A stretch of DNA of 64,000 nucleotides from Squalus acanthias. Lineage: Eukaryota. Under the pieces are notes generated by a model. The model was not told where the DNA came from. It searched no databases and saw only the letters and a program-made list of their open reading frames with translations. Positions within the stretch are counted from its first letter, which is position 1; every line of letters starts with the position of its first letter. Positions 9,098-64,000 of the stretch are shown here, piece after piece. The stretch covers positions 61,940,001 through 62,004,000 of the forward strand of contig CM059432.1 of NCBI GenBank assembly GCA_030390025.1, in the 5' to 3' direction. Both the position numbers and the translations under genes were made by a program.

Positions 9098-10964
9098 ATG
9101 ACTGCACAGAGGCAGAGGGCTGCACCCAGGTTCTCCAATGACTCCCTCCACATGCTTGTGGAGGGAGTCCGAGCACGCAGGGAGGTCCTCTTCCCTCCTG
9201 ATGGGCAGAAGAGACCTCCCCAGCAAACCAAAGGAGCCTGGCTCCAGATAGCCAAGGAGGTCAACAGCAGGGATGTTGTGAGGAGGACCTCAGTGCAGTG
9301 CCGCTAACGCTTCAACGATCTCGAGATCAGGAATGGTGAGTACAAAGCCACACTCTCCTCCATCCTGCTGTGCCTGTCATCACATCCCCATCACTCTGCC
9401 TTCCGAACCCTACTCCTGCACATCCTTAATCACACCAACCCATTGCACCTCCACCCATCCCCCTCTTTATCTACATTATCCATCTTACTAGCCACCCCTC
9501 ACCCTCATCCTATTGCAATCATACCAACTAACAACACACAAGGAGGCCTCTTGGAATTGCCACCCTACTCCTTCATAGTCACCCTCTACACATGTAACCC
9601 ATCCATTCCTTACACTCATTCCATCACACTAACTCAACCTTCTCTTTCCCTCCTTGCAGGAAAAGGAAGCCCACAATAAGAGGGAGCAGGAAAGAACTGG
9701 TGGAGGACCGGCATCATTCGCAACTCTGACCACTGAAGAGGAGGCTGCGTTGGAGCGCTCTGGTGTCCGAGCACCAGGAAGTGGGATAGAGAGAGAGGGG
9801 GACATCTCAGCAACCTGGTGACAGAATCACTATTCATACATCTACATGGCATACATCAGTCACTCATATTGGGGCTGATGTCAGCAGCCACTGAATGATT
9901 ATGTGCATAATGTTATCTGTGCCCAATGTACAGATGACATATGTAACTCATCTCTTTACTCTCCCACAGGTCCATCAAGAACCCCTCCCCACCTGTCCAG
10001 GAGGAAGCCAAAGATGACGACTCAGAGGAGCCTCCAGCCTCTGAGGGCGCAGCATCACCTGACATAAGCCCACCTAGCACCAGCGCAGATATGCACACCT
10101 CGGTGGGTTCCTCACACCATTGAGTAGTGTTGTCACCTGGTGGCTCTCCAATCACAAGTGAGCAAGAGCAGATGGTGGAGACGGGGACAGCAGTGGAGAC
10201 TCCTCGTCGGAGGGCGCAGGACTCTCCTAGCTTTGCTCAGTTGCATGCAGACACTCAGCCTCGGAGGCGATCCTGGAGCTGCAGGAACAAGTGCAGGAGG
10301 GTCTGACAGGTTTTGCGAGCACATTGACTGCCACTGTTCAGAGAATAGAGGAGTCCTCCAAAATGAGCACCACCGTGTCACAGGCAATGGCGACAGTAGG
10401 CTCCTCTATGGATAGGATGGCCACCTACATGGAGCAGCTAATGCACCACTCACAGGAGCACATGGTGTCTATGCAAATAGATGGCTATCTATGGAGAATA
10501 GATCCCAGGGGCTCATAGACGTCCTCTCTCATGAGGGATGTCAGTGTAGACGTGTGTCCTCATGGCGTCACTGATGTGCAGGAAGGTGCTCTCCAGCTCC
10601 TTGCTAGCGAGGAAGTGCAGGTGGTCCATGAGCGGGATGATGGGGAGAGGGGACATGCAAGTGGGAACTCCTCCAAGTGCTCACACTTCTCCACCATTCC
10701 CCCCCCCCCCCCCCCCTCTTGCCAACCCCTCAGTCAGAGCCCCAGATGCCTCCCCGGACAGCAATGGCCAAGTCTGCCCCTGCACAGTTTTAGGAGGAGC
10801 AGACTTTGGCGGGGCCCTCACAGGCTCCAAAATTCAAAGGACAACCGCCAAAAGTGTCTTAGCAGGCGCAGCAGGGAAGTGTGGAGGCTGCCTCTACCTC
10901 TGCTGAAGCCATAGGGGTAGCACCATGTAGAAGCACGCGTAAAAGAAAGATGCTACACAAGTAG
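9098..10964 (+). pseudogene. Harbinger Myb/SANT-like DNA-binding protein gene, spliced (exons ~9098-9335, 9660-9817, 9970-10964)
   Basis: RAAPRFSNDSLHMLVEGVRARREVLF...AWLQIAKEVNS...RTSVQCR*RFNDL, donor gtgag at 9336; acceptor ttgcag then EKEAHNKREQERTGGGP; basic C-terminus RSTRKRK. In-frame stop and frameshifts present. Confidence 0.8.
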
Positions 10965-17955: not shown

Positions 17956-18876
17956 TAAACCCCCCCGAAGAGCCGTAGCAAATTTCCCTCCCAGGATATT
18001 GGTGCCCCTCTGGTTCAGGTGCAAACCGTCCTGTTTGTACAGGTCCCACCTTCCCCAGAATGTGCTCCAATTATCCACATAACTGAAACCCTCCCCCCTA
18101 CACCATCCCTGCAGCCACGTGTTTATCTGCACTCTCTCCCTGTTCCTCAACTCGCTAGCACGTGGCACCGGCAACAAACCAGAAATTACAACATGGTTTG
18201 TACTGGCTCTCAGCTTCCAACCTAGCTCCCTAAATTCCTGTTTTAAATTCCCGTGCCTTCTCCTACCTATGTCGTTGGTACCGATGTGTACCACGACTTG
18301 TGATTGTTCCCCTTCCCCTTTGAGGATTCTGAAAACACGGTCCGAGACGTCACGGACCCTGGCACCCGGGAGGCAACATACCATCCGTGAGTCTCTTTTG
18401 CTGCCACAGAACCTCCTATCTGTCCCTCTGACTATTGAGTCCCCAATAACTATTGCTCTGCTGCTCTCCCCCCTTCCCTTCTGAGCCACAGGGACCGACC
18501 CAGCGCCGGAGATCCGGTCACCGTGGCTTACCACTGGTAAGTCGTCCCCCTCAATAGTATTCAAAGCGGTATACCTGTTACTGAGGGGAACGACCACAGA
18601 GGATCCCTGCATTGACTGCTTCCTCCTAGCCCCTCTCACCGTCACCCATCTATCTTCATGCTTTGGAGTAATTACATCCCTGAAGCTTCTATCTATGACC
18701 TCCTCTGCCTCCCGAATGATCCGAAGTTCATCCAGCTCCAGCTCCAGTTCCCTAACACGGTTTTCGAGGAGCTGGAGATGGGTGCACTTCCCACAGGTGT
18801 AATCAGCAGGGACACCTACGGCGTCCCTCACCTCAAACATTCTGCAGGAGGAACATTTCACTGCCTCCCCTGCCAT
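17950..18876 (-). CDS. CR1 ORF1p: zinc finger + leucine zipper + SGNH/GDSL esterase domain
   Basis: CSSC...CGKC, heptad LENRVRELELELDEL, IVIGDSIVRG, HIGTNDIG, DGLHLN; open 308 codons. Confidence 0.92.
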   Translation of the reverse strand: MAGEAVKCSSCRMFEVRDAVGVPADYTCGKCTHLQLLENRVRELELELDELRIIREAEEVIDRSFRDVITPKHEDRWVTVRGARRKQSMQGSSVVVPLSNRYTALNTIEGDDLPVVSHGDRISGAGSVPVAQKGRGESSRAIVIGDSIVRGTDRRFCGSKRDSRMVCCLPGARVRDVSDRVFRILKGEGEQSQVVVHIGTNDIGRRRHGNLKQEFRELGWKLRASTNHVVISGLLPVPRASELRNRERVQINTWLQGWCRGEGFSYVDNWSTFWGRWDLYKQDGLHLNQRGTNILGGKFATALRGGLN

Positions 18877-20999
18877 CCCCTCCAGCTAACTTGCAGATTA
18901 AACTAGAACAAAAAAGAGCTTACCTGATAGTCACTCACCTCCTTTAGGTTAGAGGAGGAGGAAGGGTGGGGGACACTACAAGTGTAGTGTCTCGGGTTTA
19001 GGAACCGCCCAACTTATATACAGGTAAAAATTACTCACCTACCCAGCAACCACTGCGTCCCGCACTTTAAAAGCCTCTGTGGGCCTACCTGATCGCCGCC
19101 GCCTCTTAAGTCCTCCGCCTCGCCGCAGCCGCACCACCCAGGTCCGCCGCCTCTGTGGGCCTACCTGGTTGCCAGCACCCTTGATACCTTATCGCAGTCA
19201 GAGGCCGCAATCTCAGAAGAAGAGGAAAAGTTGAAGAAAAGTAGATAGTGTATTCAGATATTTGATATTCACGAGATACGTGGCAATTTGGTTGTAAAGT
19301 GACCTTTCATGTAAATGGCCTGGTTTGTTCCATTCTTTTTCATAAGCTCTTGCTTTTCTGGGTAAGAAAACCATGGATGACTTCATGACTGTTATTGCAT
19401 TGTTAATGTAGAATTATTACCACAAATGTTTTAACAGTGGCTGAAGCACAATTTTACTTGATGTTTCTTTTATAACCCGTAACCAGCAATTCATGAAGGA
19501 AGTTTAACGACTGTGCTGTTCTGCTAATCTTTACCTATTGCAAAGAATTTATTTATATGGCTGAAAAGTCAACGGTTTGGAGAGATTCCAGCTTATGAAA
19601 AATTTGTTACTTTTGGAACAGCCCAATAATCCAGATATCTCTATTGTAATTGAGTTTTGTCCATTGTCTGTTTTGCTCAGTTTTGGCATTTGCACCCAGT
19701 GACGGAATGAAGGAGCAGGAGAGAAATGTTGGCCCGTAATTCGTGGTCAGCGGCGAAGAAAAGATGTTCGCTGCTGGCCCTGAAGTAAACTTCCATCAAA
19801 GATCTTGCGATCTCTGTGGCGAGAAGTTTGGCTTTTCCAACGTGTCATTGAAATCAGTGCAAGTTAATGGGGAATCCCTAACGCGAGCTGCTGTGATGTC
19901 AAGCTGTCTAAGCAGCCAATCATAATGCAGAATTCTTGCAGACAGTAAACTTAGGAAGTGAGTAATCTCCTTTGATTCTAACTTTTTAAAAATGTTAAGA
20001 GAGCAAAACAAAGATTGGGGCTTTCACACGGGGAGAAGGTAAACCTGAAAAAAAAGAACAAACTTTTTAAAAAAAAAGTTAAGTTTCTTGATTTAAATTT
20101 TTATTAAAATGGATAAATTTGACGCTACATAAAATTAAAATTCATTTTTCAAAGCCATAACCTTTGCTTAGCAGTCAATAGGCTGTTAAAATCTCAGTTA
20201 CACCTAATCCAAAAGGATCTAACTTTTAATGGGGTAGTTAACAGCGGTATTACTGCGGAAAAGTCGAAGTTTTTGTCAGTTTCCCTGATTTCACAGATTA
20301 CACTGATTGCCGGCTCTGATTTTTGAGGGCGCAGCCAGTGTCGGAGCAGTGAATGACTGATGACAAATTCAGGAATTCCATATTAGGATGCGCATGCGCT
20401 ACATCCTGAAGTTGTGGCCACTTTCAAAGGGGTAATAACAGCGAACGTTTATTTGCCGTAACAGTAGTGTGGAATTTTTAGGTGGTTAGTGCTTTTGTGC
20501 AACATATGGAATGCTGATTTGTGCCTGCCATCTGCGTCATACTGAATTCTCGGCACAGAGGGTCACACTAGATTGTGTTCTTGTACATCATATTTTTTTT
20601 CTTTGGAGCTGTTTTGGTTGCTGCAACAGAACAAATTAACTTGTCCCAAGTGCTGCAGATACTGGAAGGGGGGTGAGGGGAAGAGGTTAATTTGAATAAC
20701 AGTAGTTAAATCAAAAAAAAATTTCCTATCCAAATCATAGAGAAGATTCTTTTTGGTCTGGAATTCTTTGTGGTCCCCTCATTTGGATTGACATTTAATG
20801 CACTTTTAGCATCTGTTTCACCCAATTGGTGAATTACAAGCTAGTAGCAGACTTTATGCCTGCACCCAAAAGAAGAATATTTAATTGCTTATAAAACATA
20901 ACTCATTTACAGCAAAATATTTTGCTGTAAATGCTACCATTTGGCTTTTTTATAAAGAAATTGCTCCATTGACGACAACAGTAAGGGAGCGCAAAGCAC

Positions 21000-34912: not shown

Positions 34913-37106
34913 GTAAGAACACTTAATAATTAAGTCTTTTTAATTAAAAAAAACATGCATTTATATAGCGCCTTTCATGACCACTGGACGTCCCAAAACG
35001 CTTTACAGCGAACGAAGTACTTTTTGAAGTGTAGTCATTGTTGTAATGTAGGAAATCCTTTAAATGTGCTTTAAATAATATATGGTGGCAGCAAGCTCCA
35101 CTTATTAAGTATGGCCTGTAACATTTATTTTGTAGTGGATGCAATGACCCTTTGTACAATAACATTCAAATGCATTACCCCTTGTTTAAAAACTACCTAG
35201 TTCATGTTGATCCAGAGTATTTAGAATATTTAAAGTGGAAGGTCATTCTCCTGCATGTTGTTTGTAAACTTATTGCTGTCTCGGTATATTTTCACTGCAT
35301 TGGTGCAAATCGAAAATCACTAAATTTAGAGTCTGGGTCCAACCTGACTAGAGCAAAGCACAATGAGACTCCTTGGCTTCAGTTTGACACTGCATGGAGT
35401 GCAATTTCAGTTAAACCTGTTTCTAAAAGGTGCTCCGGCAGCATGCAGGATTCCCTGGACACATTTTCAACCCACCTGATTTTCCTTGAAATATTTAGAG
35501 AGAAGAACTGTTCCCTCCACACACACTCAACATTTGAATGTTTTTACTGTTGGGTAGGGTTGCAAAATTCCGGGAATTTTTAAAAGAGGAAACTTTCCAT
35601 GGGAATTTTCGGGAATTTGGGGAATTTATGGGAATTTTGAGTTTTTTTGCACACTGATGGTTTTTGTCTCTGACCCTTATTATCTTTGTCATCAAAATAG
35701 ACATACTGTTCCATACAAATAAAAACAGGCTTTCAAAACTTTATTTAGGTTATAATTTTGAACTTTATTGAACCCCCACAAAAAAGACCCATCTAAAATA
35801 AAATAAAAAGAGCGTCAGCTTATTTAGCCTGTAATTTGTTCTTATTTTGTCCCTTTGAGTCTTCTACTGATGAGTCTTCTACTCATCATTGCTCCTCCTG
35901 ATTCTCTGGCTCTGACGTGTCCATTTCCTCCTCTGTGTCACTGTCTAGCTGTGTGGTGGACACTTCTGTATCTGGCTCAATAAGTTGTAGGTTCGCCCGG
36001 ATAGACATCAGTTTCTCCACTCTCTTGTTAGTCAACCTGTTGCGCACCTTTGTATGTGTATTCCCAAAAAGTGACCAGTTTCGTTCAGAGGCCGCTGATG
36101 AAGGTGGGATTTGGAGTATCACCGATGCAATGGGTGACAGGGCCTCAGATGCACAAAGTCCCTTCCACCAGGTATGTGCACTGATATGCTTGAATGATTC
36201 CCATATCCCGTCCCCATTCCAAAGACCTTGCTTGGTAGAGAACTTTGCCAGACTTCCCAGAACTTTGCCCACGTCCAGATTGAGGTGGCGTGAGAGGGTA
36301 GAAATCACACTGTAAGCGCTGTTGATCTGTTCTCCAGAAAGTATTGGTCTCCCAACATGCTTTGGGTCCAGCATGTATGCTGCAGCATGAATCGGCTTGA
36401 CACAAAATTCTTGACGCATCTGTATGAATTGAACAATTGCCTTCTCCTCTGCTTTGAGCAGTAGGGATGTGGGTAGGGCAATGCTGATTTGTTCTTTTAA
36501 ATCAGCAAAAAGCTTGAGAACATCTGACAAGACAGCGTCATCTCCTTCAATCTGAGCAATTGCAGATGCTACTGGTGAGAGTAGCTTAAGGCTGCTAACC
36601 ACTCTCTCCCAAAACACATCATCCAGCAGTATTTTCTTGATGGTGGTTTCCATATCCCCAGACTGGGATATTGCCATTTCTTGCAGCGACTCCTTACCCT
36701 CCAGAAGGCTGTTGTACATTATGACAATGCCACCCCATCTAGTGTTGCTGGGCAGCTTCAGTGTGGTGTTCTTGTTGTTTGCTTGGAGTTGTAGGTTGCT
36801 GCAACTACCTGTCTTCCCCTGACATACTTAACACCTTGCTTGGCTCTCTTGTACACTGTTTCCATGGTTCTCAAACCCATGATGTCCTTGAGCAGGTTGA
36901 GCCCATGAGCTGCGCACCCAATAGATGTAATATGAGGGTAGGCCTCCTCCACTTGAGCCCAAGCAGCCTTCCTATTCGCAGCATTGTCAGTAACTACTGC
37001 AAAGACCTTTTGTGATCCAAGATCGTTGATGACCGCTTTCAGCTCATCAGCAATGTATGTGCCTGTGTGTCTGTTGTCCTTCGTGTCTGTGCTCTTGAAG
37101 AACACT

Positions 37107-37541
37107 AATGAGAAGTCGCACAACACCAGGTTATAGTCCAACAGATTTATTTAAAATTACAAGCTTTCGGAGCTATCCTGCCCCTTCTTCAGGTAGAGTT
37201 ACTGAGAGAATCTATCAGAATTCACAGAATATAAACACAGAGAAAATGCATAGATTAAATCTTTCCCTACATCAAAGACACACTAAGAGCACAGCCAAGA
37301 CAATGAGATGTGTCCCAGGGGGTCCAACGCGTCAAAACACCTGCTGGCTGCATATCCTCTCCATTTGTGTTTGTTTCTTGTGTTTGTTTTTTTTTTAAAC
37401 TGGAAAGACAGGCAACGATGTCAAGTCACGTTCTATAGCGTGACATGAACCCGATATCCCGATTGAGGCCGTCCTCATGAGTGCGGAACTTGGCTATCAG
37501 TTTCTGCTCGATGATTTTGCGTTGTCGTGTATCCCGAAGGC
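37107..37541 (-). mobile_element. Penelope-like element 3' fragment (second family) inserted into the hAT transposase
   Basis: GIY-YIG C-terminus RKIIEQKLIAKFRTHEDGLNRD, pLTR with hammerhead motif, 7-bp TSD gaacact (37100-37106, 37542-37548). Removing it restores TPLPVF-FKSTDT. Confidence 0.85.
37158..37195 (-). ncRNA. Minimal type I hammerhead ribozyme motif (PLE-associated)
   Basis: UAC-CUGAAGA-A-GGGGC(AGGAUA)GCUCC-GAA-AGCU-U-GUA: intact core, stem II, palindromic minimal stem III. Confidence 0.7.
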
Positions 37542-39985
37542 GAACACTGGGAGAGGAGTGGAGACGATGTAGTTTATGATGCCCTCCCCTCGTACATTTG
37601 ACCACCCATCTGAGATAACTGCAACACAGTCTGCCATCTCTTGTTTCTCTGAGCTTTCCTTGGACTCTGTTATACTCAGCCTCCAGCAAATAAGTAGACA
37701 AAGCATGTCTGGTGGGAGGACAGTATGCAGGGTGAATAACATTGAAAAATCTCTTCCAGTACACATTGGCTGAGAGCATGAGGGGTGAGCCTGTTGCATA
37801 TACAGCTCGAGCAAGGCACTCATCTGCATTCTTCTGGCTATGGTTATCCATTGTATCAAAGAACCTTTCAAGTGGGCCAGGAGTTGCTGCTGATAAGGAG
37901 CCTGATGCTGAATGTGAACCATCATCTTCTTGAATGGAAGCAGAGGAACTCTGGGCTGACTGCTGTGAGCTTTGAGTGAAGTTGTTGCATTTGGATAAAT
38001 GCTGCTGCATCTTTGTGGCATTCTTTACATATGGCTTTGTACAGTGTTTGCACATGTACTCAGTCTTTCCATCTTTAATGCCTGGGGTAAAATGCTTCCA
38101 CACATCCGACGGTAAACGTGGCATTGTTCTATGCAGAGAAATAAAGGGCATTCGTCTCTGTGTTGAACTGCGGTCGATCAGCACGATTGCAACAGGCCAG
38201 GGTGAGTAAATTTTTCCTGATGCTCCATGTGATGGAAGCATGACCTGTGCACGCACGACGCTACATCACCAATAGAGGGAGCTAATCGCTCATCCACCCA
38301 TCCAACCAATCAGGACACATTTGTTCACAGTCACACACAAAACTTGTAATTATTAAAACAAGCCAAGTAAGAAGATAAACATATATTGATTAATAAATTC
38401 CTTAATAGTTAAGATTCCATCTCTGTTAGTAATTTTAAGAGAGGACCTGTGGGGGAAAAAAAAAGAAAGACAAAAAAAAACCAATATTATGCTAGTATGT
38501 GCTTTTTTGGGCAAAATTCCCAAGCTAAACTTCCCGTGGAAAATTTCCGGAAATTTACCGGAAACTTTCCACCCCTTTGCAACACTACTGTTGGGAGAAA
38601 AAGTTCTATAAGAGTGTATCTGCGGATGGAAGAGCTCTCTTCTGGGTAGGACAATTAGGGACCAGGAGCCAAGCAGTGTAAACCGGGACTGCCGAGCTGA
38701 AACTAAAACTGCAACTACTGGTCTCGGGTGGTGCTGTAATGAGGTTTCCAGTTTAAAGAGAAAGTGTGGAGGCCAGGTAATAAATGTATGTGAATTACTA
38801 ATTTAAAAAATAATTAAAATTAAGCTCCGTTCATTGCAACTGGAGCCTGCTGCATGCTAGCAGTGGAAACTTCAGAGTGCCTTTAACCTGTTTCACTGGC
38901 AGCTGCTCTTGAATCAAACACAGAAGAAAGATGTGTTTGTCCGAGGGCTCCAGTTTCTGTTGACACTATGTCCATTCCTCAGCAGTTAAACTACTATATT
39001 TTAGCATTCTTTACAACTGGCTATGGACTCAAGATCCTGCACAATCTGCATTCCTCTTGCCCACCAAATCAAACTCTCTTTATAGCAATGACTGGAGCTA
39101 TATGAAATGCAAACAAAGTGTGACTGGTCACTTCCTTGTTGCATACTTTTTCTTTTTATTCTTCTTGTACGTTAGAAATACAAATTGGTATAGAGTGGTT
39201 TCCAGTGATGTCTGAAGCCAAGCTAATATAAGGTCAGGAGTGCCACTCTTCCCTGAAGATTCCACAATGTTCAGCTCCATTCTCAACTCTTCCAATAATG
39301 AAGCAACCCATGGCAGCTTACAGTAGGCCCTGGATAACATACATGCTGGGACTGCCAAGTGGCATAACCTTTGCATCATACAAATACCAGGGACTTCAAC
39401 AGTACCACCATTAGAGTCCCCCATCACAGGAGATTTGCAAGTACAAAATGAAAAATACAAAGCAATGTCCATAATGGATTTGTTACCTTTTTCAAGAAAT
39501 GTTTTGGAAATTAATAATTTATCTAATTTGTCTTGTAATCTCAGTGCTGATTGGAATTGAATTGTGTTGAAAATAAAGTCGCAATCTTTTCATCTAGTTT
39601 CAAAACTCAAAGAAATGAAGATCTGTAGTAGGTTCCAGGTTTTGAGCACTTCATTTCCTTTGAAGTCAGGTAACTTAAATGAGTTAAAATTCATAGATAA
39701 AAGACAATCCATTTGATTTTGTATCTGTGAAAGGCAAACTCCACTCCAATGAATAATACTTTATCAAAGACATTTTGCAAGCCTAGTTACACTACACCAT
39801 ATGACTTTCCCTTGTCAATGTTTAGTATCACCACCTCTAAAACTCTCTCTGGTTGGTCAGTTAAAATCTACTCATTTATTAGGTATTTTCATATAGTTAC
39901 TTCTGATGACTAACTAGTTTGATGAGTTTCCCAACTATTGTATTTAGTCTATAAATGTCTGGAATAGACAATGGATAAATGCATT

Positions 39986-42614: not shown

Positions 42615-45330
42615 AGAAACATAGAAAAATAGGAGCAGGAGTAGGCCATTCGGCCCTTCGAGCCTGCTCCGCCATTCAATATCATCATGGCTGATCCTCT
42701 ATCTCAATACCATATTCCCGCTCTCTCCCCATACCCCTTGATGCCTTTTGTGTCTAGAAATCTATCCATCTCCTTCTTAAATATATTCAGTGACTTGGCC
42801 TCCACAGCCTTCTGTGGTAGAGAATTCCACAGGTTCACCACCCTTTGAGTGAAGAAATTTCTCCTCATCTCAGTGCTAAATGTCCTACCCCGTATCCTGA
42901 GACCGTGACCCCTCGTTCTAGACCTCCCAGCCAGGGGAAACATCCTCCCTGCATCCAGTCTGTCTAGCCCTGTCAGAATTTTATACGTTTCAATGAGATC
43001 CCTTCTAATTCTTCTAAACGCTAGTGAATACAGGCCTAGTTGACCCAATCTCTCCTCATACGACAGTCCTGCCATCCCAGGAATCAGTCTGGTGAACCTT
43101 CGCTGCACTCCCTCTATGGCAAGTATATCCTTTCTTAGGTAAGGAGACCAAAACTGCACACACTACTCCAGGTGTGGTCTCACCAAGGCCCTGTATAACT
43201 GTATTTTTCCTACCGAAGTGGATAACTACACATTTATCCACGTTATTCTGCATCTGCCATGTATTTGCCCACTCACTCAACGTGTCTAAATCGCCTTGAA
43301 ACCTCTTTGCATCCTCCTCACAACTCTCAATCCCACCTAGTTTTGTGTCGTCAGCAAACTTGGAAATATTACATTTGGTTCCCTCATCCAAATCATTGAT
43401 ATATATATATTGTGAATAGCTGGGGCCTAAGCACTGATCCCTGCGGTACCCCACTAGTCACCGCCTGCCACCCCGAAAAAGACCCATTTATTCCTACTCT
43501 CTGTTTCCTGTCTGTTAACCAATTTTCAATCCATGCCAGTATATTACCCCAATCCCATGTGCTTTAATTTTGCACACTAACCTCTTATGTGGGACTTTTA
43601 TCAAAGGCCTTCTGAAAATCCAAATACACCACATCCGCTGGTTCTCCCTTATCTATTCTACCAGTTACATCCTCAAAAAAAAAACTCCAGTTGGTTTGTC
43701 AAACACGATTTCCCTTTCATAAATCCATGTTGACTTTGTCTAATCCCGTTGACATTTTCTAAGTGTCCTGTTATCACATCCTTTATAATAGACTAGCATT
43801 TTCCCTACTACTGATGTTAGGCTAACCGGTTTGTAGTTCCCTGTTTTCTCTCTCCCTCGAGGGTTACATTTTCCACCCTCCAATCTGCAGGAACTGTTCC
43901 ATAATCTATAGAATTTTGGAAGATAACAACCAATGCATCCACTATTTCCATGGCTACCTCTTTTAGTACTCTGGGATGCAGATTATCAGGCCCTGGGGAT
44001 TTATCGGCTTTCAGTCCCATTCATTTCGCCAGCACTTTTTTTATTTAGCATTTCTGGAAGTTATTTGTGTCCTCTTCCATGAAGACAGAACCAAAGTATT
44101 TGTTTAATTGCTCTGCCATTTCCTTGTTCCCCATTATAAATTCTCCCGTTTCTGACTGTAAGGGACCTACATTTGTCTTCACTAATCTTTTTCTTTTTAC
44201 ATACTTGTAGAAGCTTTTACAATCTGCTTTTATGTTCCTTACAATATTACACTCATACTCTATTTTTCCCCTCTTAATCAATCTCTTGGACCTTTTTTGT
44301 TGAACTCTAAACTGCTCCCAATTCTCAGGCTTGCTACTTTTTCTGGCAACTTTATATGACTCCTCTTTGGATCTAATACTATCCTTAATTTCTTTTGTTA
44401 GCCATGGTTGGGCTGCTTTTCCTTTTGTGTTTTTGCACCAGAAAGGAATGTATAACTGTTGCAATTCATGCATTCGTTCCTTAAATGTCAGCCATTGCCT
44501 ATCCACTGTCATGCCTTTTAATGAAGCTCCCCAATCATAGCCAACTCACTCCTCATACCTTCATAGTTTCCTTTGTTTAGATTTAGGACCCTAGTTTCAG
44601 ATTGGACTTCTTCACTTTCCATCTTAATGAAGAATTCTATCATGTTATGGTCACTCTTCCCTAAAGGACCCCACACAACAAGATTATTAATTAACCCCTT
44701 CTCTTTGCACAATACACAATCTAGGATAGCCTGTTCCCTAGTTGGCTCCTCAACATACTGGTCTAAAAAACCATCTCGTACACACTCCAGAAATTCATCC
44801 TCCACAGTATTATTGCTAATTTGGTTTGGCCAGTCTATCTGTAGATTAAAGTCACCCATGATTACTGTAGTACCCATGTTACATGCATCTCTAATTTCCT
44901 GTTTGATGCCATCCCCTACATTACCACTACTGTTTGGAGGCCTATAGACAACTCCCACCAATGTTTTCTGCCCCTTGGTGCTTCTTAGCTCCACCCTGAC
45001 TGATTCTACATCTTTATTTTTTGAGCCAAATTCCTTTCTCACTATTGCTCTGATTTCATCCTTTACTAACAATGCCAACCCACCTCCTTTTCCTTCTTGC
45101 CTGTCCTTCCTAAATATTGAATATCCTTGGATATTCAGCTCTCAGCCTTGGTCACCCTGCAACCATGTCTCCGTAATCGCAATTATATCGTATCTATTTG
45201 CACTGTTAATTTGTCTACCTTATTACGAATGCTTCGTGCATTCAGATACAGTGCCTTTAGATTTGTCTTTTTAACATTTTTAGACATCTTAACATTTTTT
45301 TGTACTATGGCCCTATTTGTCTTATTACCA
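42615..45330 (-). mobile_element. CR1 LINE, ORF2 (APE+RT) with frameshifts and an internal deletion
   Basis: LYLNARSIRNK, YRPPN, GDFN, SDHN, PGPD, FADDTKL and [10 protein letters not shown] in successive ORF pieces; CR1 tail. Confidence 0.9.
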
Positions 45331-52274: not shown

Positions 52275-54166
52275 CTTCTTAGGCGGAACCGAGGATGACT
52301 TGCTTCCACATTAAAAAATGAGTTCTCAGGTGACTGAGTCCAATGTGGGACCTACAGTCTCTGTCACAGGTGGGGCAGACGGTGGTTGAAAGGGCAGGTG
52401 GGTGGGGTGCTTGGGGTGACGTGCGCTGCTTGCACTTGGCTTCCGCTTGCTCCCGGCGAAGAGACTCGAGGTGTTCGCCGCCTTCCCAGATGCTTCTCCA
52501 CTTTGTGCGGTCGTGAGCCAGGGATTCTCAGGTGTCTGTGGGGATGTTGCACTTTTTCAAGGAGGCCTTGAGGGTGTCCTTGAAGCGTTTCCTCTGCCCA
52601 CCTGGGGCTCTCTTGCTGTGTCGGAGCTCCGAGTAGAGCGCTTGTTTTGGGAGTCTCGTATTGGGCATGCGGATGATGTGACCCGTCCATCGGAGCTGAT
52701 CGAGCGTGGTCAAAGCTTCGATGCTGGGGATGTTGGCCTGAGCGAGAACACTGACGTTGGTGCACCTATCCTGCCAATGGACTTGCAGGATCTTGCGGAG
52801 GCAGCGTTGGTGGTACCTCTCCAGTGCTTTGAGGTGCCTGCTGTAAATGGTCCATGTCTCTGAGGCATACAGGAGGGTGGGTATCACTACTGCTCTGTGG
52901 ACCATGAGCTTGGTGCCAGGTTTGAGGTCCTGGTCTTCAAACACTCTCTTCCTCAGGCGACCGAAGGCTGCACTGGCACATTGAAGGCAGTGTTGGACTT
53001 CGTCATCGACGTCTGCCCTTGTTGACAGTAGGCTCCCAAGGTATGGAAAGTGGTCCATGTTGTCCAAGGCCTTGTCGTGGATTTTGATAATCAGGGGGCA
53101 GTACTGTGTGGCGGGGGCAGGTTGGTAGAGGACCTTTGTCTTACGGATGTTTAGTGTAAGGGCCCATGCTCTCGTACGCTTCAGTGAAGGTGTTGGAGTT
53201 CGACCTCTTGAGTGTGCGCAGACGCAAGTGTCGTCTGCATACTGTAATTCGATGACAGAGGATGGGACGACCTTGGATCTGGACTGGAGGTGACAGAGGT
53301 TGAACAGTTTCCCGTTTGTTCTGTAAATTAGCTCCACTCCAGCGGGGAGCTGACTGAGGGTGAGATGGAGCATTGTAGCAAGGAAGATCGAGAAGAGCGT
53401 TGGTGTGCTGACACAGCCTTGCTTGACCCCGGTCCGTACGTGAGTTGGGTCTGTGGTGGAACCGTTGGTCAGGATCACGGCTTGCATGTTGTTGTGAAGC
53501 AGGCGGAGGATGGTGACAAACTTTTGAGGGCAGCCGAATTTGAGGAGGACACTCCATAATCCCTCACGGTTGACGGTGTCGAAGGCCTTTGCGAGGTCAA
53601 AGAAGGCCATGTACAACGGTTGGTGCTGTTCCCTGCATTTCTCTTGTAATTGACGCGCGGTGAAGATCATGTCCATTGTGTCCCTTAGTGGGTGGAATCT
53701 GCATTGCGACTCTGAGAGGAGCTCTTCAGCCACTGGGAGAAGGCAATTGCAGAGGATTCTTGCGATGACTTTCCCTGTGGCAGACAGCAGGGAAACTCCT
53801 CTGTAATTACCATAATCGGACTTGTCACCTTTCTTGAAGATGGTCACAATTACGACGTCTCTGAGATCCCCTGGCATGCTCTCCTCCTTCCAGATAAGAG
53901 AAATGAGTTAATGAATTCACGCCAGTAGTGCTTCTCCACCATGCTTTAGTGCCTTGGCAGGGATTCCATCTGCTCCTGAGGCCTTGCTGTTCTTCAGTTT
54001 TCGAATGGCCTTTTCAACCTCTTGTTGGGCTGGGGTTGTGCTGAGGTGGTGGCGGGTAGCATGCTGCGGGTTGGAGTTGAGGACACTCACGTCAAAGACA
54101 GAGTCTCGGTTAAGGAGATCTTCGAAGTGCTCCTTCCAGCGGGCACTGACTGCCTCCCTGTCATTG
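52275..54166 (-). mobile_element. RTE-clade LINE, 5'-truncated RT
   Basis: KKGDKSDYGNYRGVSLL, DMIFTARQLQEKCREQ, FDLAKAFD, GVKQGC, YADD, YLGS, LRWTGHIIRM. Confidence 0.9.
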
Positions 54167-54624: not shown

Positions 54625-55766
54625 CAATAAGAGGTTAGTATGCAAAATTAAAGCACATGGGATTGGGGGTAATATACTGGCATGGATTGAAAATTGGTAA
54701 ACAGACAGGAAACAGAGAGTAGGAATAAATGGGTCTTTTTCGGGGTGGCAGGCGGTGACTAGTGGGGTACCGCAGGGATCAGTGCTTGGGCCCCAGCTAT
54801 TCACAATATATATCAATGATTTGGATGAGGGAACCAAATGTAATATTTCCAAGTTTGCTGACGACACAAAACTAGGTGGGATTGAGAGTTGTGTGGAGGA
54901 TGCACAGAGGCTTCAAGGCAATTTAGACAAGTTGAGGTGAGTGAGCAAATACATGGCAGATGCAGTATAACGTGGATAAATGTGAAGTTATCCACTTCGG
55001 TAGGAAAAACAGAAAGGCAGAGTATTATTTAAATGGTGATAGATTGGGAAATGTTGATGTACAAAGGGACCTGGGTGTCCTTGTACACCAGTCACTGAAA
55101 GCAAACATGCAGGTGCAGCAAGCAGTTAAGAAGGCAAATGGTATGTTGGCCTTCATTGCAGGAGGATTTGAGTACAGGAGCAAGGATGTCTTACTAAAGT
55201 TTTCAGGGCCTTGGTGAGACCACACCTGGAGTACTGTGTGCAGTTTTGGTGGTCTTACCTAAGAAAGGATATACTTGCCACAGAGGGAGTGCAGCAAAGG
55301 TTCACCAGACTGATTCCTGGGATGGCAGGACTGTCGTATAAGGAGAGATTGGGTCGACTAGGCCTGTATTCACTCGAGTTAGAAGAATGAGAGGGGATCT
55401 CATTGAAACGTATAAAATTCTGACAGGGCCAGACAGACTGGATGCAGGGAGGATGTTTCCCCTGGCTGGGGGGTCTAGAACGAGGGGTCACAGTCTCAGG
55501 ATATGGGGTAGGACATTTAGCACTGAGATGAGGAGAAATTTCTTCACTGAGGGTGGTGAACCTGTGGAATTCTCTACCACATAAGGCTGTGGAGGCCAAG
55601 TTACTGAATATATTTAAGAAGGAGATAGATTTCTAGATACAAAAGGCATCAAGGGGTATGGGGAGGGAGCGGGAATATAGTATTGAGATAGAGGATCAGC
55701 CATGATATTGAATGGCGGAGCAGGCTCGAATGGCCTACTCCTGCTCCTATTTTTCTATGTTTCTAT
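54625..55766 (+). mobile_element. CR1 LINE 3' part (same subfamily as 42615-45330)
   Basis: [29 protein letters not shown]; 3' UTR visibly near-identical to the reverse complement of 42615-42800. Confidence 0.9.
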
Positions 55767-58627
55767 CTGCTAAAAATGAGAGCAACAGTTCTTTACAACT
55801 GCCTGGATCATATACTTCAAGCCTGTCCCTTACAATGCCATCCCATTGTTGATGAAGATATCAGATAGGATGGTTGCCGGTCTTCCCTCAATTTTTTGAG
55901 TGAGCAAGAGAGATTCAGCTAGTCTCCCATCTTCCCATACATGAATCTTGAAGCTGGTGTATACATCCTTGATTTAAAAAAATCCCAAGCGCTTTGGTTA
56001 CATAGTTCCATAAGTTCCTGATTCATGATTTCAGTAGAACGCACAAAATCAAAAACCTTACAAGTCAATGAAAACAATCCAAGTAGATTACCCTTGAGCC
56101 TTGGTGTTCTGCTATACTGTATAAAACTGTAACATGCCTTACACATTCCTTGTGAGAGCAAAATGCTGCCTGTGATTATACTGCAGACCTCCAACGTGCA
56201 CGCCATGACAACCCGAAGATGCTAGGTAGCTTTCAGGCTGTCTGGGATTCTCCTTTTTTGTGGATAGAAACCATAATTGCTCTCAGAATACCATTCTTCT
56301 AACAGAATCCTATTCACTAGCTTCAGATAAGGCAGCTCCAAAGCAAGCTTGTGATTCCTGCACTGTTTCCCAAGACCATTGTCATTCTCTGTTTTCCTCC
56401 TCCCAACCTAGAGCAGCAGTAAAGTGCTGATGTTTGGCATTTATGTATCAGCAACCTGTACATTTTCACATCACTCTACCCAGTATATTTCATTATTATG
56501 ATGCATTTTACATGTTCTTTTCAGTACAATTTGCATAATCAGTCTATGTGGTACATCACTGCCTAAAGTATTTTCACTTCACTGGGTGCCATAACGTTTG
56601 AGGGAGCCATGTGATTTCTTGTTTGGTGCTGGGTGCTGATCATGACCCATCATAGGACCCACATAATTGTGCATGTGCACAGGCTCCACTGCGGCATATT
56701 TTGGGTAACTTCAGAAGAGGAACAAGAGGCAGCACGGTGAAGTGCTTATTTTTAATCAACAAATACTAACATAATTCCATAAGTGCTGACTGTCAGTGTG
56801 AAATTCTGATGGCTGACATGTTTGCAATCCAGGGATTAAACCTGGAAAATTCTTGGCTTGTTTGGCTCAATTGCATAGCAGTCACTGCATTTACACACTG
56901 AAATCCCAACATTTCTTAAAGCATATTTTAATATATTCATTGTTCATGTTTATTAAACTACTTAATTACAGGGAGAAAATCAAAAAGTTAAAGAATCGTA
57001 TTCAGAATAAGGCCACCAAATTTTGTTCTACTATGTTTGAGCTAACTTCAGAATATCTTCAGATTGCAGCCAGACTTGATGTGGCTCCTCACTATTGACC
57101 AAAAGCACTCACTTCCTTTTAACTTTATTCCAGCAGTAGTGTTCAAAATAACAATGAAATTATTTTCTTACCACTCTGCTGATTACACACCAGCACAGTA
57201 CCACAAGCGAATTGTGGAGAATTCTAACGTGGTTTTGACAGAGGGGACGGAGGCAGCAGCATGCGCTGATTTTTGTCAGCAAACGTGGACAGAACTCCGT
57301 AAACTGCACTGGTTGGCATATATGATTCAGTTGATAAGTTTAGTGTTATGGGGTATATTACTATTATCTGGTTTTCTCCAAAATATACAGTACTACTTCA
57401 TATTTAGTTCTCAGTAAAATGATATTCCTTATCTGTCGCATCATTTACATGTATTGAGAACACAACAGACACCTTGACATGCCACTAGATACATCATGCC
57501 AATCCAAGAAATATCCATTTGCTCCTATTCACTACTTCCTATCCTTCAGTCATATGAAATAACAGAACATTTATACAAATGCACAACATTTATAGAATGT
57601 TGGCATCTTAATAAAAGAAGGATGAACTTTTTGGGGGGAGGTTTTCCCTTAGTTAGTAGTGGCTTACAGCAATAATCTGATTAGGCTATTTTTTCAAATT
57701 CTTATAAAATTCTTGCTGTTGTCAATTCATGTTTATAAATCCCCAACATTTTTTGTTCTTCAAGCATGATCCTTACTAAAATAGATGAAAAGGATATTCA
57801 AAGTTGATTTTCTGATTCAAAAGTTATGATACCAGCCTACTCATGTGGAAAAAAAATTAATTCACTTCAATATGCAGCATGTAGAGATTAGCTTATCTGG
57901 TCTTTCGAATAATCAGAATCAACTGCAACCAATATGGTGGGTATATTGTGTTTAATCAGAGTTTAAGGCGGAATATAACACTAGTTATACAGCAAAAACA
58001 TATGACCGTGACGAGCAGCAAGTACCAGCCCTGATCGGACAGACGGCTGGTGAGCGCGACCAGCTCTCCTCCTCATCTCGCGTGTGTCTCTTCTTGAACT
58101 GCCCAAGAATGTTAGACCAAGGTCAGCATGGATGCACTCTCGGGAGCTTTTCACTCCACCGTCTGCGCTGGGGGCTTTTCAGGTCTTTTATACTTTTTTT
58201 TTAGGGGTGGACCTGGGGTAGAATATGCTGAAGACTGTTTTCCCCTTATCTCATCTGGTCCTGTCCTCCCAAGTTTGGAGTCAGACATACCATTCTCGGC
58301 CTTCAGATGTTCGTAGCTGCTTGTTATCAGTTACTTATATTCAAAGCTGTTCATGTAGTTTAGCTGTGCAAACTAACTATTTCATTCCATTATCAGACTA
58401 TTGTACCATGGAATGAATCATTAAATTCCCAAAGATACCCTCTATTCTATTCTCACACACTGGTTAACTTACACATTTTAGCAAGCAGTTTTGTTAAACA
58501 AAGTCAAAATCCTAACTTAGCATTATAATATGGTTGTTAACGGTAATGGAAGAAACATAGGCGTTGGGCCTTGGGGTTGGCCAAATTAAAGACAGCAGCC
58601 TTCCTAGCACACAAACAGCAGACAGCT

Positions 58628-59486
58628 CCCTCCGCGACACCCTAGTCCACTCCTCTACCACCCCCAGCACCCCTTCCCCTTCGCCCGGCACCTTCCCGTG
58701 CACGCGCAGGAGATGCTACACATGCCCTTACACCTCCCCTCTTCCCACTGTCCAGGGCCCCAAACACCCCTTCCAGGTGAAACAGCGATTTACTTGTACT
58801 TCCTGCAATTTAGTATACTGTATTCGCTGCTCACGATGTGGTCTCCTCTACATTGGGGAGACCAAACGCAGATTGGGTGACCGCTTTGCGGAACACCTCC
58901 GTTCAGTCCGTAAGGGGGACCCCGAGCTCCCGGTGGCCTGTCACTTTAATTCACCGCTTCACTCCCACTCTGACCTCACCGTCCTCGGCCTATTACACTG
59001 TTCCACGGAAGCGCAGCGTAAGCTCGAGGAACAGCACCTCATCTTTCGTTTAGGCACGCTACAGCCCTCTGGACTCAATATCGAGTTCAACAATTTTAGA
59101 TCATAACCTCAGCTCCAATCACATTTATATTTTATTTTTTCCACCCTTTTATTTGCCCCCCCCCCCACCTTTTTTTTCCTCCTAGAAGCTGGCAGCTGTC
59201 CTTCATTCTGCCAGTGGATTTCACACTTCTTTCAGCCTTAATCTGTCACATTTACACCACCTCTAGCCTTGCATATCTCTTAATGTCTCTTAATGTCTCT
59301 TCATCTCCCTCTTTGTTCTTTTATCCCCTCCCCCTTTTCCCAGCTTTACTCTGGCCTTAAATCTATTTGATTTCCGGCTCTTCACAGTTCTGATGAAAGG
59401 TCATCGACCTGAAACGTTAACTCTCTTTCTCTCTCCACGGATGCTGCCTGGCCTGCTGAGTTTTTCCAGCGTTTTCTGTTGTTATT
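58628..59486 (+). mobile_element. Penelope-like element, 5'-truncated: GIY-YIG endonuclease C-terminus + pLTR
   Basis: CTRRRCYTC...NLVYCIRCSRCGLLYIGETKRRLGDRFAEH...HFN...RKLEEQHLIFRLGTLQPSGLN; 13-bp TSD acagcagacagct (58615-58627, 59487-59499). Confidence 0.92.
59386..59422 (+). ncRNA. Minimal type I hammerhead ribozyme motif (PLE pLTR)
   Basis: AGUU-CUGAUGA-A-AGGU(CAUCG)ACCU-GAA-ACGU-U-AACU: stem I AGUU/AACU, stem II AGGU/ACCU, palindromic ACGU stem III. Confidence 0.78.
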
Positions 59487-60106
59487 ACAGCAGACAGCTA
59501 GCCTGGGAAGCAAGGTCATATATGACTGCCACTGTGTAGAATGTTATAATATCCACAGGGAACCAAAAATTTTAAGCATCTGTCCAGTTACTCTAATACT
59601 AGTCTGAAGACACTTTATCTCAAGCTCTAACACAATCATCTAAACACACAGTATTATTCGCGTCACAATTTCATTCGTGTAACCATATACATTTTAGGTA
59701 CCCCTAATTTCTAACAGACTCCCCACCTTGCGAGAGAGAAAACTCTATTCGACCTCTCATTTTCGACCCTCTACCAACCGTGCCAACTCTGGATTATTGG
59801 TTCGATGGTTCAATCGGTGTGTCTATTTCAGGTTAGTTAGTAAGTGAATGTGAAGTGGAGACTTTCCTAGTATTCTCACAGTCCATACACTTGAGGGGGA
59901 GGAGCAGTTCTCTGACCCCTCACTCAAATTCAATTCACTGTTCCGGTGTTCCAATTCTGCCCCGTCTGGGGTATCCTCTGTTTCTTCTATCTTACCTGAT
60001 CTTACCCCGCCTGGGGTCTCCTCTCTTTCATCTCAGATCTTCCCTTTCGGTGTGCTCAATTAATTTGTTAGTGCTGGTTAGTTATAGGCATAAGTACACA
60101 ATTGGC

Positions 60107-60892
60107 TTATGCGCCAGTGGAGAAGGGTTCTCTTTTTTTTGTTTTATTTAGGGCCCTTCCAGAGTCTAGCCTCCTCCAATAGTCCAGCTTAAGCCTCCTT
60201 AACATAGTTTTTACTAAGTGGGTTACATACATCAAATACACTACCATTACAAGCTGGAGTACTACAAGAGCGTGTGCAATAATACGAACCCAAGGGTGTG
60301 CTGATATATTAAGCCCGATATCCCACCAGTGTCAATTTCAATACCTATTCTCGAGTTGTCTTGCTCCAACATGTAAAAATGCTTTAGGGAGGCGTTCAGT
60401 CGCATCACGAGCTCATGGAAGTCCTCAGACAGCAGGGCAATGTTGTACCCGAATTGTGCCGCTCATACGTAAGTGTCTTATTTACTGTCAGTTTCACTTG
60501 AGCATAGGTTTTTGATATTGAGTAAAACGTGTCGGTTGATGGTTGTGGGTAGATGTGGTATGAAGCAGAAACTGGGGCTATTAATGGGACAGGTCCTGTT
60601 AAACCCGTAAAGCATATTAGTTGCGGTAGTAGTGACACTGTAGGTTCCTTTTCCCTGATCGTTTTACACCCACACCTTCCTCAATCAAGTACGTTGTCAC
60701 CACAGTCCGAGTAACATTGCACATCCTAAGGAAGAATCCCTCGCGGGTGATCGGATTAGAGATCGAGTAGGAGCTTGTCTCCTCTTTCCTACTCACTCTG
60801 TCTCCCACCACTCTTGGTTCCCAATCCCACTGTGTCACCTTACTCGTGTTAGTCAGTGCTTCACACAGGAGACACCACCAAAACCACCTCAT
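60107..60892 (-). pseudogene. Envelope-like type I membrane glycoprotein gene, frameshifted
   Basis: Joined over frameshifts: signal-like MRWFWWCLLCEALT; GKGTYSVTTT...NRTCPINSPSFCFIP; heptad-like FHELVMRLNASLKHFYMLEQDNSRIGIEI; WWDIGLNISAHPWVRIIAHALVVLQLVMVVYLMYV (TM); basic tail. Several N-x-S/T sequons. Lies just upstream of the PPT/LTR. Confidence 0.7.
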
Positions 60893-60914
60893 ACTGGATT
60901 CGTGCTGGTTTTTT

Positions 60915-62530
60915 CATAACATAAGAGAAGGAGTAGGCCATACGGTCCCTCGAGCCTGCTCCGCCATTCAATAAGATCATGGCTGATCATCGACCTCAAC
61001 TCCACTTTCCCGCCCAATCTTCATATCCCTTGATTCCCCTAGAGTCCAAAAATCTATCTATCTCAGCCTTGAATATACTCAAAGACTCAGCATGTACAGC
61101 TCTCTGGGGCAGAGAATTCCAAAGATTCACAACCCTCTGAGTGAAGAAATTCCTCCTCATCTCAGTCTTAAATGGCCTACCCTTTATCCTGAGACGATGC
61201 CCCCTAGTTCTAGACACTCCAGCCAGGGGAAACAACCTCTCCGCATCTACCCTGTCAATCCTCTTCAGAATCTTGTATGTTTCAATGAGATCACCTCTCA
61301 TTCTTCTAAATTCCAGAGAGTATAGGCCCATTCTACACAATCTCTCATCATAGGACAGCCCTCTCATCCCAGGAATCAATCTAGTGAACCTTCATTGCAC
61401 CGCCTCCAAGGCAAATATATCCTTCCTTAGATAAGGAGACCAAAACTGTGCACAGTACTCCAGGAGTGGTCTCACCAAGGCCCTGTACAATTATAGCAAG
61501 ACTTCCTTATTCTTATACTCCAACCCCCTTGCAATAAAGGCCAACATGCCATTTGCCTTCCTTTTTGCTTGCTGTACCTGCATGCTAGCTTTCTGTGTTT
61601 CTTGCACGAGGACACCCAAATCTCTCTGAACACCAACATTTGAAAGTTTCTCACCGTTTAAAAAATATTCTCTTTTTCTATTCCTACCAAAGTGAATAAC
61701 CTCACATTTCCCTACATTATACTCCATCTGCCACCTTACTGCCCACTTACTTAATCTATCTATATCCCTATGCAGACCCTTTGTGTTCTTCTCACAGCTT
61801 ACTGCCCCACCTAGCTTTGTATCATCAGCAAACTTGGATACATTACACTCGGTCCCTTCATCTAGGTCATTAATATAGATTGTAAATAGCTGAGGCCCCA
61901 ACACTGATCCTTGCGGCACCCCACTAGTTACAGCCTGCCAACCTGAAAATGGAATGTATTTTTGTTGAGAATTATGAAATATTTCTTTAAATGTTAGCCA
62001 CTGCTTATCTACCTCCATACCTTTTAATCTATTTTTCCAATCTACCTTAGCCAACTCGCCCCTCATACCTATGTAATTGGCTTTATTTAAGTTTAAGACT
62101 CTAGTTTCGGACTTGGGCAAGTCACTCTCAACATTAACTTGAAATTCTATCATATTATGATCACTCTGCCGCAGAGGATCCTTTACTATGATATTGCTAA
62201 TTAACCCTGTCTCATTACACAATACAAGATCTAAAATAGCCTGTTCCCTGGTTGGTTCCATGACATATTGTCCTAGGAAACTGTCCCGAATGCATTCCAT
62301 GAACTCGTCCTCCAGACTATCTTTGCCAATTTGATTTGTCCAGTCTATATGAAGATTAAAGTCCCCCAAGATTATTGCATTACCTTTGTTGCAAGCTCCT
62401 ACTATTTCTTGATTAATATTCTGTCCAACGGTATAGCTACTGTTAGGGGGCCTATATACTACTGCTGCCAGTGTTTTCTGCCCCTTGTTATTCCTTATCT
62501 CCAGCCATACTGATTCTACTTCCATGATCT
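60915..62530 (-). mobile_element. CR1 LINE fragment with an internal deletion (EN fused to RT C-terminal half), inserted in the ERV-like element
   Basis: 356-aa ORF with YRPPN/GDFN/SDHN running straight into [16 protein letters not shown]1 tail at 60915. Confidence 0.88.
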
Positions 62531-62599
62531 GATGCCTACAAAACACAATTATTACAGTCACAGTTATAAATCAGTCTTGCAATCATTAGCACGTCGATT

Positions 62600-64000
62600 A
62601 AGTACATACATTTCAAGCAACAATGATGCAGACCAAGAAAACAGACATTGTAAAGAAAGCTACAGTTTAACATCTAATCAACAAATCATGGACTTAAAAG
62701 ATTCTCCAGATCTCTCTTACTCGTATCCATCTTGTGGATGATTCTTGCTAAATTTATTTCTCCTTAGCCTTCAATTGTCCCAATCCAAATCCTATGTCAC
62801 TTTTTACTTAAATTTTAATCCCTCTGACAGGTACCAGTGTGTTTAACTCTATCGTGATTGTTTCATTAATTAGATAATTTCTCGATGGAGTATGTGTCAG
62901 TGCTTAAAGTTGTCTCATTCTCCTGAGCCACATTAACCATTTCATGTCTTGCTGTTGTCAAGTAACTGAGCATGTCTGAGACCCGTTCTTCAGTGCAAAT
63001 TCACCATGTATTTCCGCATGCTAATTGCTTCATACGTAACAAATCACTTCTGCACTCACCCACTGGTATCCCAATATCATGCCACACGTACCATCCGATA
63101 CAAGCCATTCTTGGGCTTTCAGGTGATCTCATCAAAAGATCGTAGTCACCTGGAGATCTTTGCTCATCTCCCTCTGCATGGTCCCGATGTCTCGGGTAGT
63201 GACCAGGGTATCAAATGCAGTTTTCGTAAAGTTCATAGGCAAGGACACAAAACTATCAATTTACTATTCTTAACTGCACTTTCATGACTTTCACTAGAAT
63301 GTACATTAATACCAGATTGCACCCAGGTGATTTATGCCAAGTCGCTTAAGAAAATGATTCCCATTTAGTGGTGTAATGAAACATTTCCTGTTTCTATCTG
63401 CATTGTAAGTGGGGCATCCCATTAATTACTATTCATATCTCATTCATGAACCCTGGAGGAACTTTACTGTCCAATACAATAATAAAGATAGAAAACATAG
63501 ATTAAACATTCCCACTTGGTCCAAGTTATTAACTTTTTTTAATTCTTTATAACCCGCTATATTGTGCCTGAGTCCATGTTATCATTTCAAACTTATCCCA
63601 AATCCAAACAGCAGTATTATTGGACTGACAGGTTTTGTCAATGTTCAATTTTATTTCCCCACAAACTTTCTTCTTTAATACACAGCAATTGGTAGGACCA
63701 CCTCGACTGCTTTACACCAGTTTCTTTAATGAAAATTTTTATATTCCCTTAAACTTCAGTTAGATTTTCCTTTCTCGAGTGCTTGAAACAATTTATCTCA
63801 TCAATTTCATAAACAGGCTTGCTGGTTTACATGGTGTTTTAACATTAGAGACAGAAGTACTCGCAATTAGTTTACAAGATAACTTCCATATAACAAAAGA
63901 AAGTTGAGAATCCATTGTGGCCCTGCTTAAGAGCCCAAGGGATTAATTTGTCAAATCATAATTTTCTATCTGTCACCATGGGAAAATATTCACTTAAAAT
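62600..64000 (-). pseudogene. Possible second, more decayed membrane-glycoprotein gene of the ERV-like element
   Basis: Coding-like fragments with sequons (NNT, NFT, NET), ending EINLARIIHKMDTSKRDLENLLSP*FVD*ML and hydrophobic TVAFFTMSVFLVCIIVA (62666-62616). Many stops and frameshifts. Confidence 0.35.

Follow-up and report, generated by a model that had tools for sequence, protein, structure and literature searches.

Two putative F-type envelope genes ahead of the 3' long terminal repeat of a many-copy element in Squalus acanthias

Introduction

Retroviruses typically carry a single env gene. Among the closest described systems, and within the parts of the cited sources covered here (a scope that holds for every published comparison in this text), lokiretroviruses have one env together with an optional smc gene (PMC7947760), while errantiviruses, which are Ty3/gypsy elements of invertebrates, have one env of either the F or the gB type per element (bioRxiv 10.1101/2023.10.26.564294). 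Fish foamy-like endogenous retroviruses (ERVs) are also known to bear extra open reading frames (ORFs) beside env (PMC5210030, PMC5512871), and retroviruses exchange env by recombination (PMC10536682). In a table of PMC7947760 two cartilaginous fish genomes stand without an asterisk, which we read as no lokiretrovirus having been found in them. Here we analyze a 64,000-nucleotide stretch of Squalus acanthias (GCA_030390025.1, contig CM059432.1, positions 61,940,001 to 62,004,000), referred to below as the window and numbered from its first letter. Its right end holds part of a decayed element with a long terminal repeat (LTR). Read along the minus strand from 64000 downward, this element consists of an AT-rich decayed gene (env-A), a CR1 fragment, a second gene (env-B), approximately 380 nt of untranslated sequence, a purine tract and the LTR. 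The best reading of this arrangement is that two separate genes, each ending in a transmembrane (TM)-like segment, precede the LTR, and this reading is supported by their linkage in other copies. Both are likely F-type envelope genes, akin to the fusion proteins of paramyxoviruses and pneumoviruses such as measles virus and RSV.

Results

A first-pass annotation, made from the sequence of the window, had proposed two separate surface-protein genes ahead of a retroviral LTR, and had named as the case against itself that 62530-64000 might be single-copy sequence unlinked to the rest. We therefore aligned contigs from four of 21 listed sequencing runs (X1, X6, X7 and X13) to positions 57500-64000. 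Depths summed over contigs are not equal to copy number; that X7 and X13 are RNA runs is a guess, and nothing about expression is drawn from them. In run X1 the summed depth was 24 in the flank bin and 3,132-51,625 in bins wholly outside the CR1 and Penelope insertions, a step of two to three orders of magnitude that drops back to single-copy level past the LTR end. The case against the proposal failed, since 62708-64000 is multi-copy (9,369-51,625 versus the flank bin's 24) and contigs of other copies connect it to env-B. Positions 57880-64000 thus belong to one many-copy LTR element. Most of the longer pieces from other copies carry approximately 11-17 differences per 100 letters from the window copy, with one piece at 2 per 100. 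Length differences between copies fall inside both genes (among 12 of 84 listed), so that some of the frame breaks are probably private to the window copy. One X6 contig, from a different organism (organism B), spans 57500-57951, including flank and LTR end, with 8 differences in 455 letters; this suggests that the two organisms share the insertion.

Within the element, the two genes are separated by a fragment of a CR1 long interspersed nuclear element (LINE) at 60914-62521 on the minus strand, with Pfam matches to RVT_1 and Exo_endo_phos_2. These matches bear out the CR1 of the first-pass annotation, but joints in other copies correct its bounds from 60915-62530. The fragment is nearly open (frame-change cost 2) and must therefore be much younger than the surrounding sequence. 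In at least three contigs of X1 and at least three of X6, position 60913 is joined to 62522 or 62528 across 1 or 7 intervening letters. The longer-sided of these CR1-free contigs have 35 and 34 letters on their short side, and those in X1 reach depths of 597 and 379 versus 16-24 for the flank; none was present among the joints listed for X7 and X13. These contigs link the upstream stretch to env-B without CR1 in other copies, so the claim of two genes ahead of one LTR held beyond the window copy, and CR1 was inserted into that copy after the element had formed. They also bear on whether the locus is a one-off chimera, in which fragments of two unrelated elements came to adjoin by chance or by nested insertion. 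The unlikeness of the two genes and the tendency of the region to attract insertions would fit such an origin. However, X1 contigs carrying the direct junction are 16-37 times as deep as the flank, and a second organism has the junction too, which largely refutes a chimera and leaves it scarcely credible. Among the other joints, one contig each in X7 and X13 skips 59993-62661 (2667 bases), losing the env-A helix and all of env-B; the ends of this skip are not intron-like. A smaller skip of 228 bases within env-B, 60634-60863, is seen in two X13 and three X6 contigs, with donor-like and acceptor-like dinucleotides within a base or two of its ends, and may be either a deletion variant or a retro-copied spliced form.

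The downstream gene, env-B, occupies 60107-60892 on the minus strand (262 codons). It has an ATG, a signal-like start (judged by eye, not by a predictor), a C-terminal beta-rich part, a heptad stretch, a WW motif, a TM segment and a basic tail. The hydropathy of the TM segment was reached by 2 of 500 shuffles. Openness of the gene is modest: depending on the frame-change cost, it was equalled by 2 or by 18 of 200 shuffles. A scan of 1.84 billion representative proteins returned two matches, P0001 and P0002. The former, a repeat protein matching an out-of-frame stretch, was dropped as a relative. The latter is XP_067888431.1, a gene model of fbxo15 from Heterodontus francisci, whose last 190 residues are envelope-tail-like; residues 353-510 align to 60594-60161 (E 2e-12 within the window). 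Through P0002 we reached P0004 (XP_067888393.1), an uncharacterized protein of 317 residues from the same species. Its residues 166-313 align to 60654-60224 with three frame changes, which break the homologous part of env-B, and a single-frame homologue search with X at stops gave no match. The frameshift-aware score of this alignment was 163, compared with 36.7±5.0 for shuffles (0 of 60 reached it) and 65 for the best of 78 window controls. That best control, 9793-9954 on the plus strand, matches the WW and TM part of P0004 (tblastn E 0.018) and is probably due to chance. Homology to the Heterodontus proteins spans 60654-60161 in total, at 34-44% identity across the beta-rich part, heptad, WW and TM, and the proposal of a second glycoprotein-like gene at 60892-60107 is thereby upheld. 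All named homologues come from Heterodontus francisci.

Several signals place these relatives, and with them env-B, near F-type envelope proteins. Residues 364-489 of P0002 gave a weak match to Baculo_F (PF12259), with E 0.0011 and 18 bits versus a curated cut-off of 24. P0004 had no Pfam match; in the Atlas its neighbours include Baculo_F clusters, with a feature score of 0.88 and a structural TM of 0.41-0.42, each of which falls short of the threshold, and its Cys/Trp pattern resembles, by eye, that of the F-like Env of lokiretroviruses. Taken together, these several weak signals make it likely that env-B is an F-type envelope gene. The features of F-type class I fusogens that env-B displays, through homology to P0002 and P0004, are the C-terminal beta domain, the heptad stalk and the TM segment. 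A cleavage site, fusion peptide, first heptad and Cys-rich domain were not found in its 262 codons, which contain no second hydrophobic segment and leave no room for the last three of these parts. The alignment begins abruptly at P0004 residue 166, and P0004 has 165 additional Cys-rich residues ahead of the matching part. One X6 contig traverses 60510-60836, so the short form of env-B is probably not unique to the window copy.

Further searches with env-B gave no usable match for its tail in the Atlas and no match among viral contigs, and PDB sequence searches with the envelope pieces of the window gave nothing under E 0.05. Six metagenome loci matched 13-24 residues of the TM region and were taken as chance. 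Two RefSeq isoforms of Heterodontus francisci fbxo15, P0002 and P0003, end in the envelope-like tail of approximately 190 residues with a TM segment, which may reflect exon capture from an ERV or an artefact of the gene model. Three other fbxo15 models of this species, P0005-P0007, belong to the same cluster as these two.

The upstream gene, env-A, would occupy 62613-63915 on the minus strand, approximately 435 codons interrupted by numerous stops and frame breaks. Its ATG at 63915, inside the window, has the best Kozak context among the 101 ATGs in 59700-63990. At its other end, a heptad-like stretch is followed by a hydrophobic TM-like helix at 62666-62616 and a stop at 62615. This agrees with the decayed ORF that had been proposed upstream, and 13 of 500 shuffles of 62530-64000 were as hydropathic, which on its own is modest evidence. 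We compared the stretch, by eye and with residue-class patterns, to 16 of the 23 Loki Env entries that the supplement of PMC7947760 prints. One motif, at 63501, resembles a fusion peptide and has M-P after it, spaced as in Loki-Bsp. At 63188 a pattern of Gly, aromatic-Leu, Cys and Trp-Val extends over approximately 43 residues with Loki spacing to within one residue. Each of these two patterns matched once in six frames of the 64 kb, on the minus strand and in the correct order, and in 1 and 0 of 5000 shuffles, counts that overstate the case because the patterns were written after the window had been viewed and were relaxed to fit. A less biased comparison is provided by two lamprey Loki Env proteins, first seen after the patterns had been fixed, to which a 9-residue stretch at 62910-62884 shows five identical and three similar positions by eye. 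A basic cluster, containing no intact RXKR, lies ahead of the fusion-peptide-like motif.

The Loki-like motifs stand in order and spacing across approximately 600 nt, in different frames with many stops between them. From the fusion-peptide region to the Cys-rich region, env-A has approximately 58 codons versus approximately 136 in Loki-Ofa. Most of the first heptad region therefore appears to be absent, leaving env-A some 78 codons short of published Loki Env. Adding the missing stretch to the distance from ATG to TM gives approximately 513 codons, within the range of the Loki Env proteins compared. None of the listed contigs crosses this gap.

From the order and spacing of these motifs, recognized by eye and by the post hoc patterns, env-A is very probably the remnant of an F-type env. 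The alternative is that the upstream stretch is non-coding filler, some other ORF or the decayed end of pol, in which case the element has one env, namely env-B. It gains from the absence of any match to env-A in Pfam (PF00523 included), a set of 5.8 billion proteins or PDB sequences, all searched with single frames. It also gains from openness no better than that of shuffles (cost 22 versus 20.3±2.4, with 157 of 200 shuffles as open). An env with an acceptor ahead of it normally follows pol, and this too counts in its favor. However, no integrase or RNase H family matched in any frame of the stretch in Pfam and PDB sequence searches, and the Loki-like motifs, the Kozak ATG where the gene should start and the hydrophobic end speak against it. 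We consider a non-envelope origin of the upstream stretch improbable. By eye, the upstream frames were also read as integrase (HHCC-like) and as RNase H; both readings were dropped for the missing family match and the wrong order.

We next considered how the two genes relate to each other. Each has its own ATG and its own hydrophobic end. There was no DNA match between them, and the relatives of env-B (P0004 and the P0002 tail) did not align to env-A, giving a score of 43 that 11-14 of 60 shuffles reached. An hhalign comparison of alignment A1 with two env-A frames yielded probabilities of 0.0 and 0.3. The absence of a DNA match, together with the failure of the env-B relatives to align, points to diverged lineages and not to a recent duplication. 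These data also address whether CR1 merely split a single long env, such that the upstream TM and the downstream signal have been misread. Continued colinearly beyond its match, P0004 would run across the CR1 site, and by eye the 5' part of env-B also passes for the diverged middle of such a protein. However, residues 1-165 of P0004 match neither side of the junction. Moreover, a C-terminal beta region, a stalk and an anchor are recognized by motif in env-A and by homology in env-B; the genes thus repeat and do not complete each other, and a single split env is very improbable.

Candidate splice acceptors lie on the minus strand ahead of each gene. The first, at 63923-63945, is a YAG/G with a branch-like motif 8 nt ahead of the env-A ATG, and the second, a weak one, lies between the genes at 62536-62560. 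Judging by the position of these acceptors, both genes may have been expressed by splicing. We do not claim that env-A was dead before env-B on the strength of 22 versus 5.5 breaks; neutral decay could account for such a difference where copies diverge by approximately 15% and the sequence is richer in AT.

Downstream of env-B, a multi-copy untranslated stretch (59730-60106) leads to the polypurine tract. Its openness on the minus strand, together with that of the LTR start, is no greater than in shuffles, and at 60020-59950 on the same strand two imperfect direct copies of approximately 25 nt were spotted by eye. The polypurine tract at 59719-59729 (minus strand) has purines at 10 of 11 positions. 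The tract and the TGTTAG at 59716 were both where they had been annotated, but two pyrimidines separate them, so that the tract does not directly adjoin the LTR. The 3' LTR extends on the minus strand from TGTTAG at 59716 to a terminal TCTACA at 57880 and measures 965 nt without its insertion. TATAAAA at 58192 and ATTAAA at 57956 match the LTR-like block that had been described. A Penelope-like fragment with a Pfam GIY-YIG match lies on the plus strand within the U3 (unique 3') region. That identity stood, but its extent is 58628-59486, between identical 13-nt target duplications, and not 58628-59499. A joint bypassing 58520-59486 was present in contigs of all four runs, and Penelope, like CR1, was inserted into the window copy after the element had formed. 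The TG...CA ends, TATA motif, poly(A) signal, preceding polypurine tract and many copies are all features of ERVs, and the many-copy element is likely one.

Elsewhere in the window, 42684-43550 and 54666-55706 form an inverted pair of CR1-type sequences, 94-99% complementary and approximately 11-13 kb apart. Three long open frames of 311, 251 and 768 aa at 15058-18885 (minus strand) are presumably ORF1 and ORF2 of a nearly whole LINE. Two frames of 279 and 313 aa at 35889-38265 (minus strand) we take to be a DNA transposase, and a 459-aa frame at 52531-53907 (minus strand) presumably encodes a LINE reverse transcriptase.

Discussion

We favor, with some confidence, the view that this locus holds the defunct 3' half of an LTR element with many copies, which is likely an ERV and in which two likely F-type env genes from diverged lineages were joined by recombination. 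In the simplest history, another F-type env cassette, equipped with an acceptor, would have joined the first env without replacing it, and each gene may have been expressed from its own spliced RNA. In the window copy both genes are without the part that drives fusion: env-A has lost approximately 78 codons of the first heptad region, and env-B the fusion peptide, the first heptad and most of the Cys-rich part. Loss of env accompanies spread inside the germ line. The missing fusion core of both genes, along with the further deletion variants hinted at by the joints, fits such a spread, and the family has likely multiplied within the genome or germ line without needing a working envelope. CR1 and Penelope would have jumped into the window copy afterwards.

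Several results weigh against this history. For env-A they include the missing database matches, the shuffle-like openness and the fitting of the patterns after the fact, as given above; in addition, one of the patterns gave no match before its spacer was corrected, and a third was uninformative, with 29 matches in the window and in 1698 of 5000 shuffles. For env-B, the F-type signals of the relatives all fall under curated thresholds, the first 80 codons match nothing, and the single-sequence fold of P0004 (pLDDT 38) is unusable. Neither acceptor is exceptional, as 12 of 70 YAG sites have as many pyrimidines as the one at 63923 and 22 of 70 as many as the one at 62536. No pol, primer-binding site or 5' LTR lies within the 64-kb window, which ends at 64000. 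An origin by recombination is suggested solely by the unlikeness of the two genes, and either deletion may be confined to part of the family.

An alternative is that the family once was a working virus with two glycoproteins. Here env-A would be the fusogen, and env-B, short by design, an F-derived stalked surface protein for attachment, receptor interference or counter-defence. The element would then descend from an ancient shark retrovirus that made two F-type glycoproteins, each from a spliced RNA of its own: a fusogen of the lokiretrovirus type, and a pared-down F derivative consisting of distal beta domain, stalk and anchor. Such a division resembles the paramyxovirus-like split of attachment and fusion, here built from two F paralogues. 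In keeping with it, env-B retains a stalk, TM and tail behind its signal-like start, possesses an ATG and a candidate acceptor of its own, and is traversed in its short form by the X6 contig of the second organism. At one cost setting it is also more open than shuffles (2 of 200), whereas at the other the advantage shrinks to 18 of 200. The 165 additional Cys-rich residues of P0004 indicate that the lineage had a longer protein, and the joints suggest other deletion variants, one of them losing env-B wholly, as expected under decay. We regard a working two-glycoprotein virus as unlikely, though less so than a non-envelope origin of the upstream stretch, and keep to recombination followed by decay as the favored account.

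If both genes are F-type env of different lineages, their presence in one element would represent either a halfway stage in the exchange of one envelope for another or a retrovirus that had two surface proteins, and the lokiretrovirus type of Env would extend to cartilaginous fish. If env-A is not an env, the locus would be an ordinary ERV end of the env-deleted kind. As the family has many copies in several organisms, the question is testable by comparing them.

The frog element XTERV1 is said to have two env ORFs, although we found no paper on it. Among the titles and opening lines of abstracts given by literature searches, which did not extend to subscription papers, Repbase entries, Fig. 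S2 of PMC7947760 or bioRxiv supplements, we found no description of two env genes in one element. The covered parts of PMC10536682, PMC8672886, PMC12440569, PMC12813294, PMC5408684, PMC4422223 and bioRxiv 2021.11.05.467493 contain no such layout. The term "env2" has no occurrence in the first 300 of the 318 pages of the PMC7947760 supplement, nor have "two env" or "tandem" in the covered text of bioRxiv 10.1101/2023.10.26.564294. Gamma-type Env, marked by a TLV_coat domain with ISD and CX6CC, is not indicated either, as no TLV_coat match was obtained in the ERV-derived pieces or in P0002 and P0004, although decay could hide TLV_coat in env-A. In fish foamy-like ERVs the accessory ORFs are without TM motifs and the border between polypurine tract and LTR reads GGGTG (PMC5210030), whereas the extra gene in the window has a TM segment and the GGGTG border is not seen. 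Errantivirus F-type ENV and baculovirus F (PF12259; bioRxiv 10.1101/2023.10.26.564294) belong to the same broad fusogen class, to which the weak PF12259 signal in the env-B relative corresponds. Lokiretroviruses (PMC7947760) come closest. They are marked by a reverse transcriptase clade sister to other retroviruses and by a tether plus RNase H. Their F-like Env, similar to the F protein of Mononegavirales (PF00523), has a signal, an RXKR cleavage site ahead of the fusion peptide, a coiled coil and a TM, and env-A repeats short motifs of it in the same order and spacing; they also share a TG...CA LTR that follows a purine tract after a short spacer. In contrast to their single env, the element in the window has two TM-ended genes, and the WW/HPW membrane-proximal part of env-B was not seen in the Loki Env proteins compared (PMC7947760). 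Likened in this way, the element would work as the 3' end of a lokiretrovirus to which an extra F-type gene has been added.

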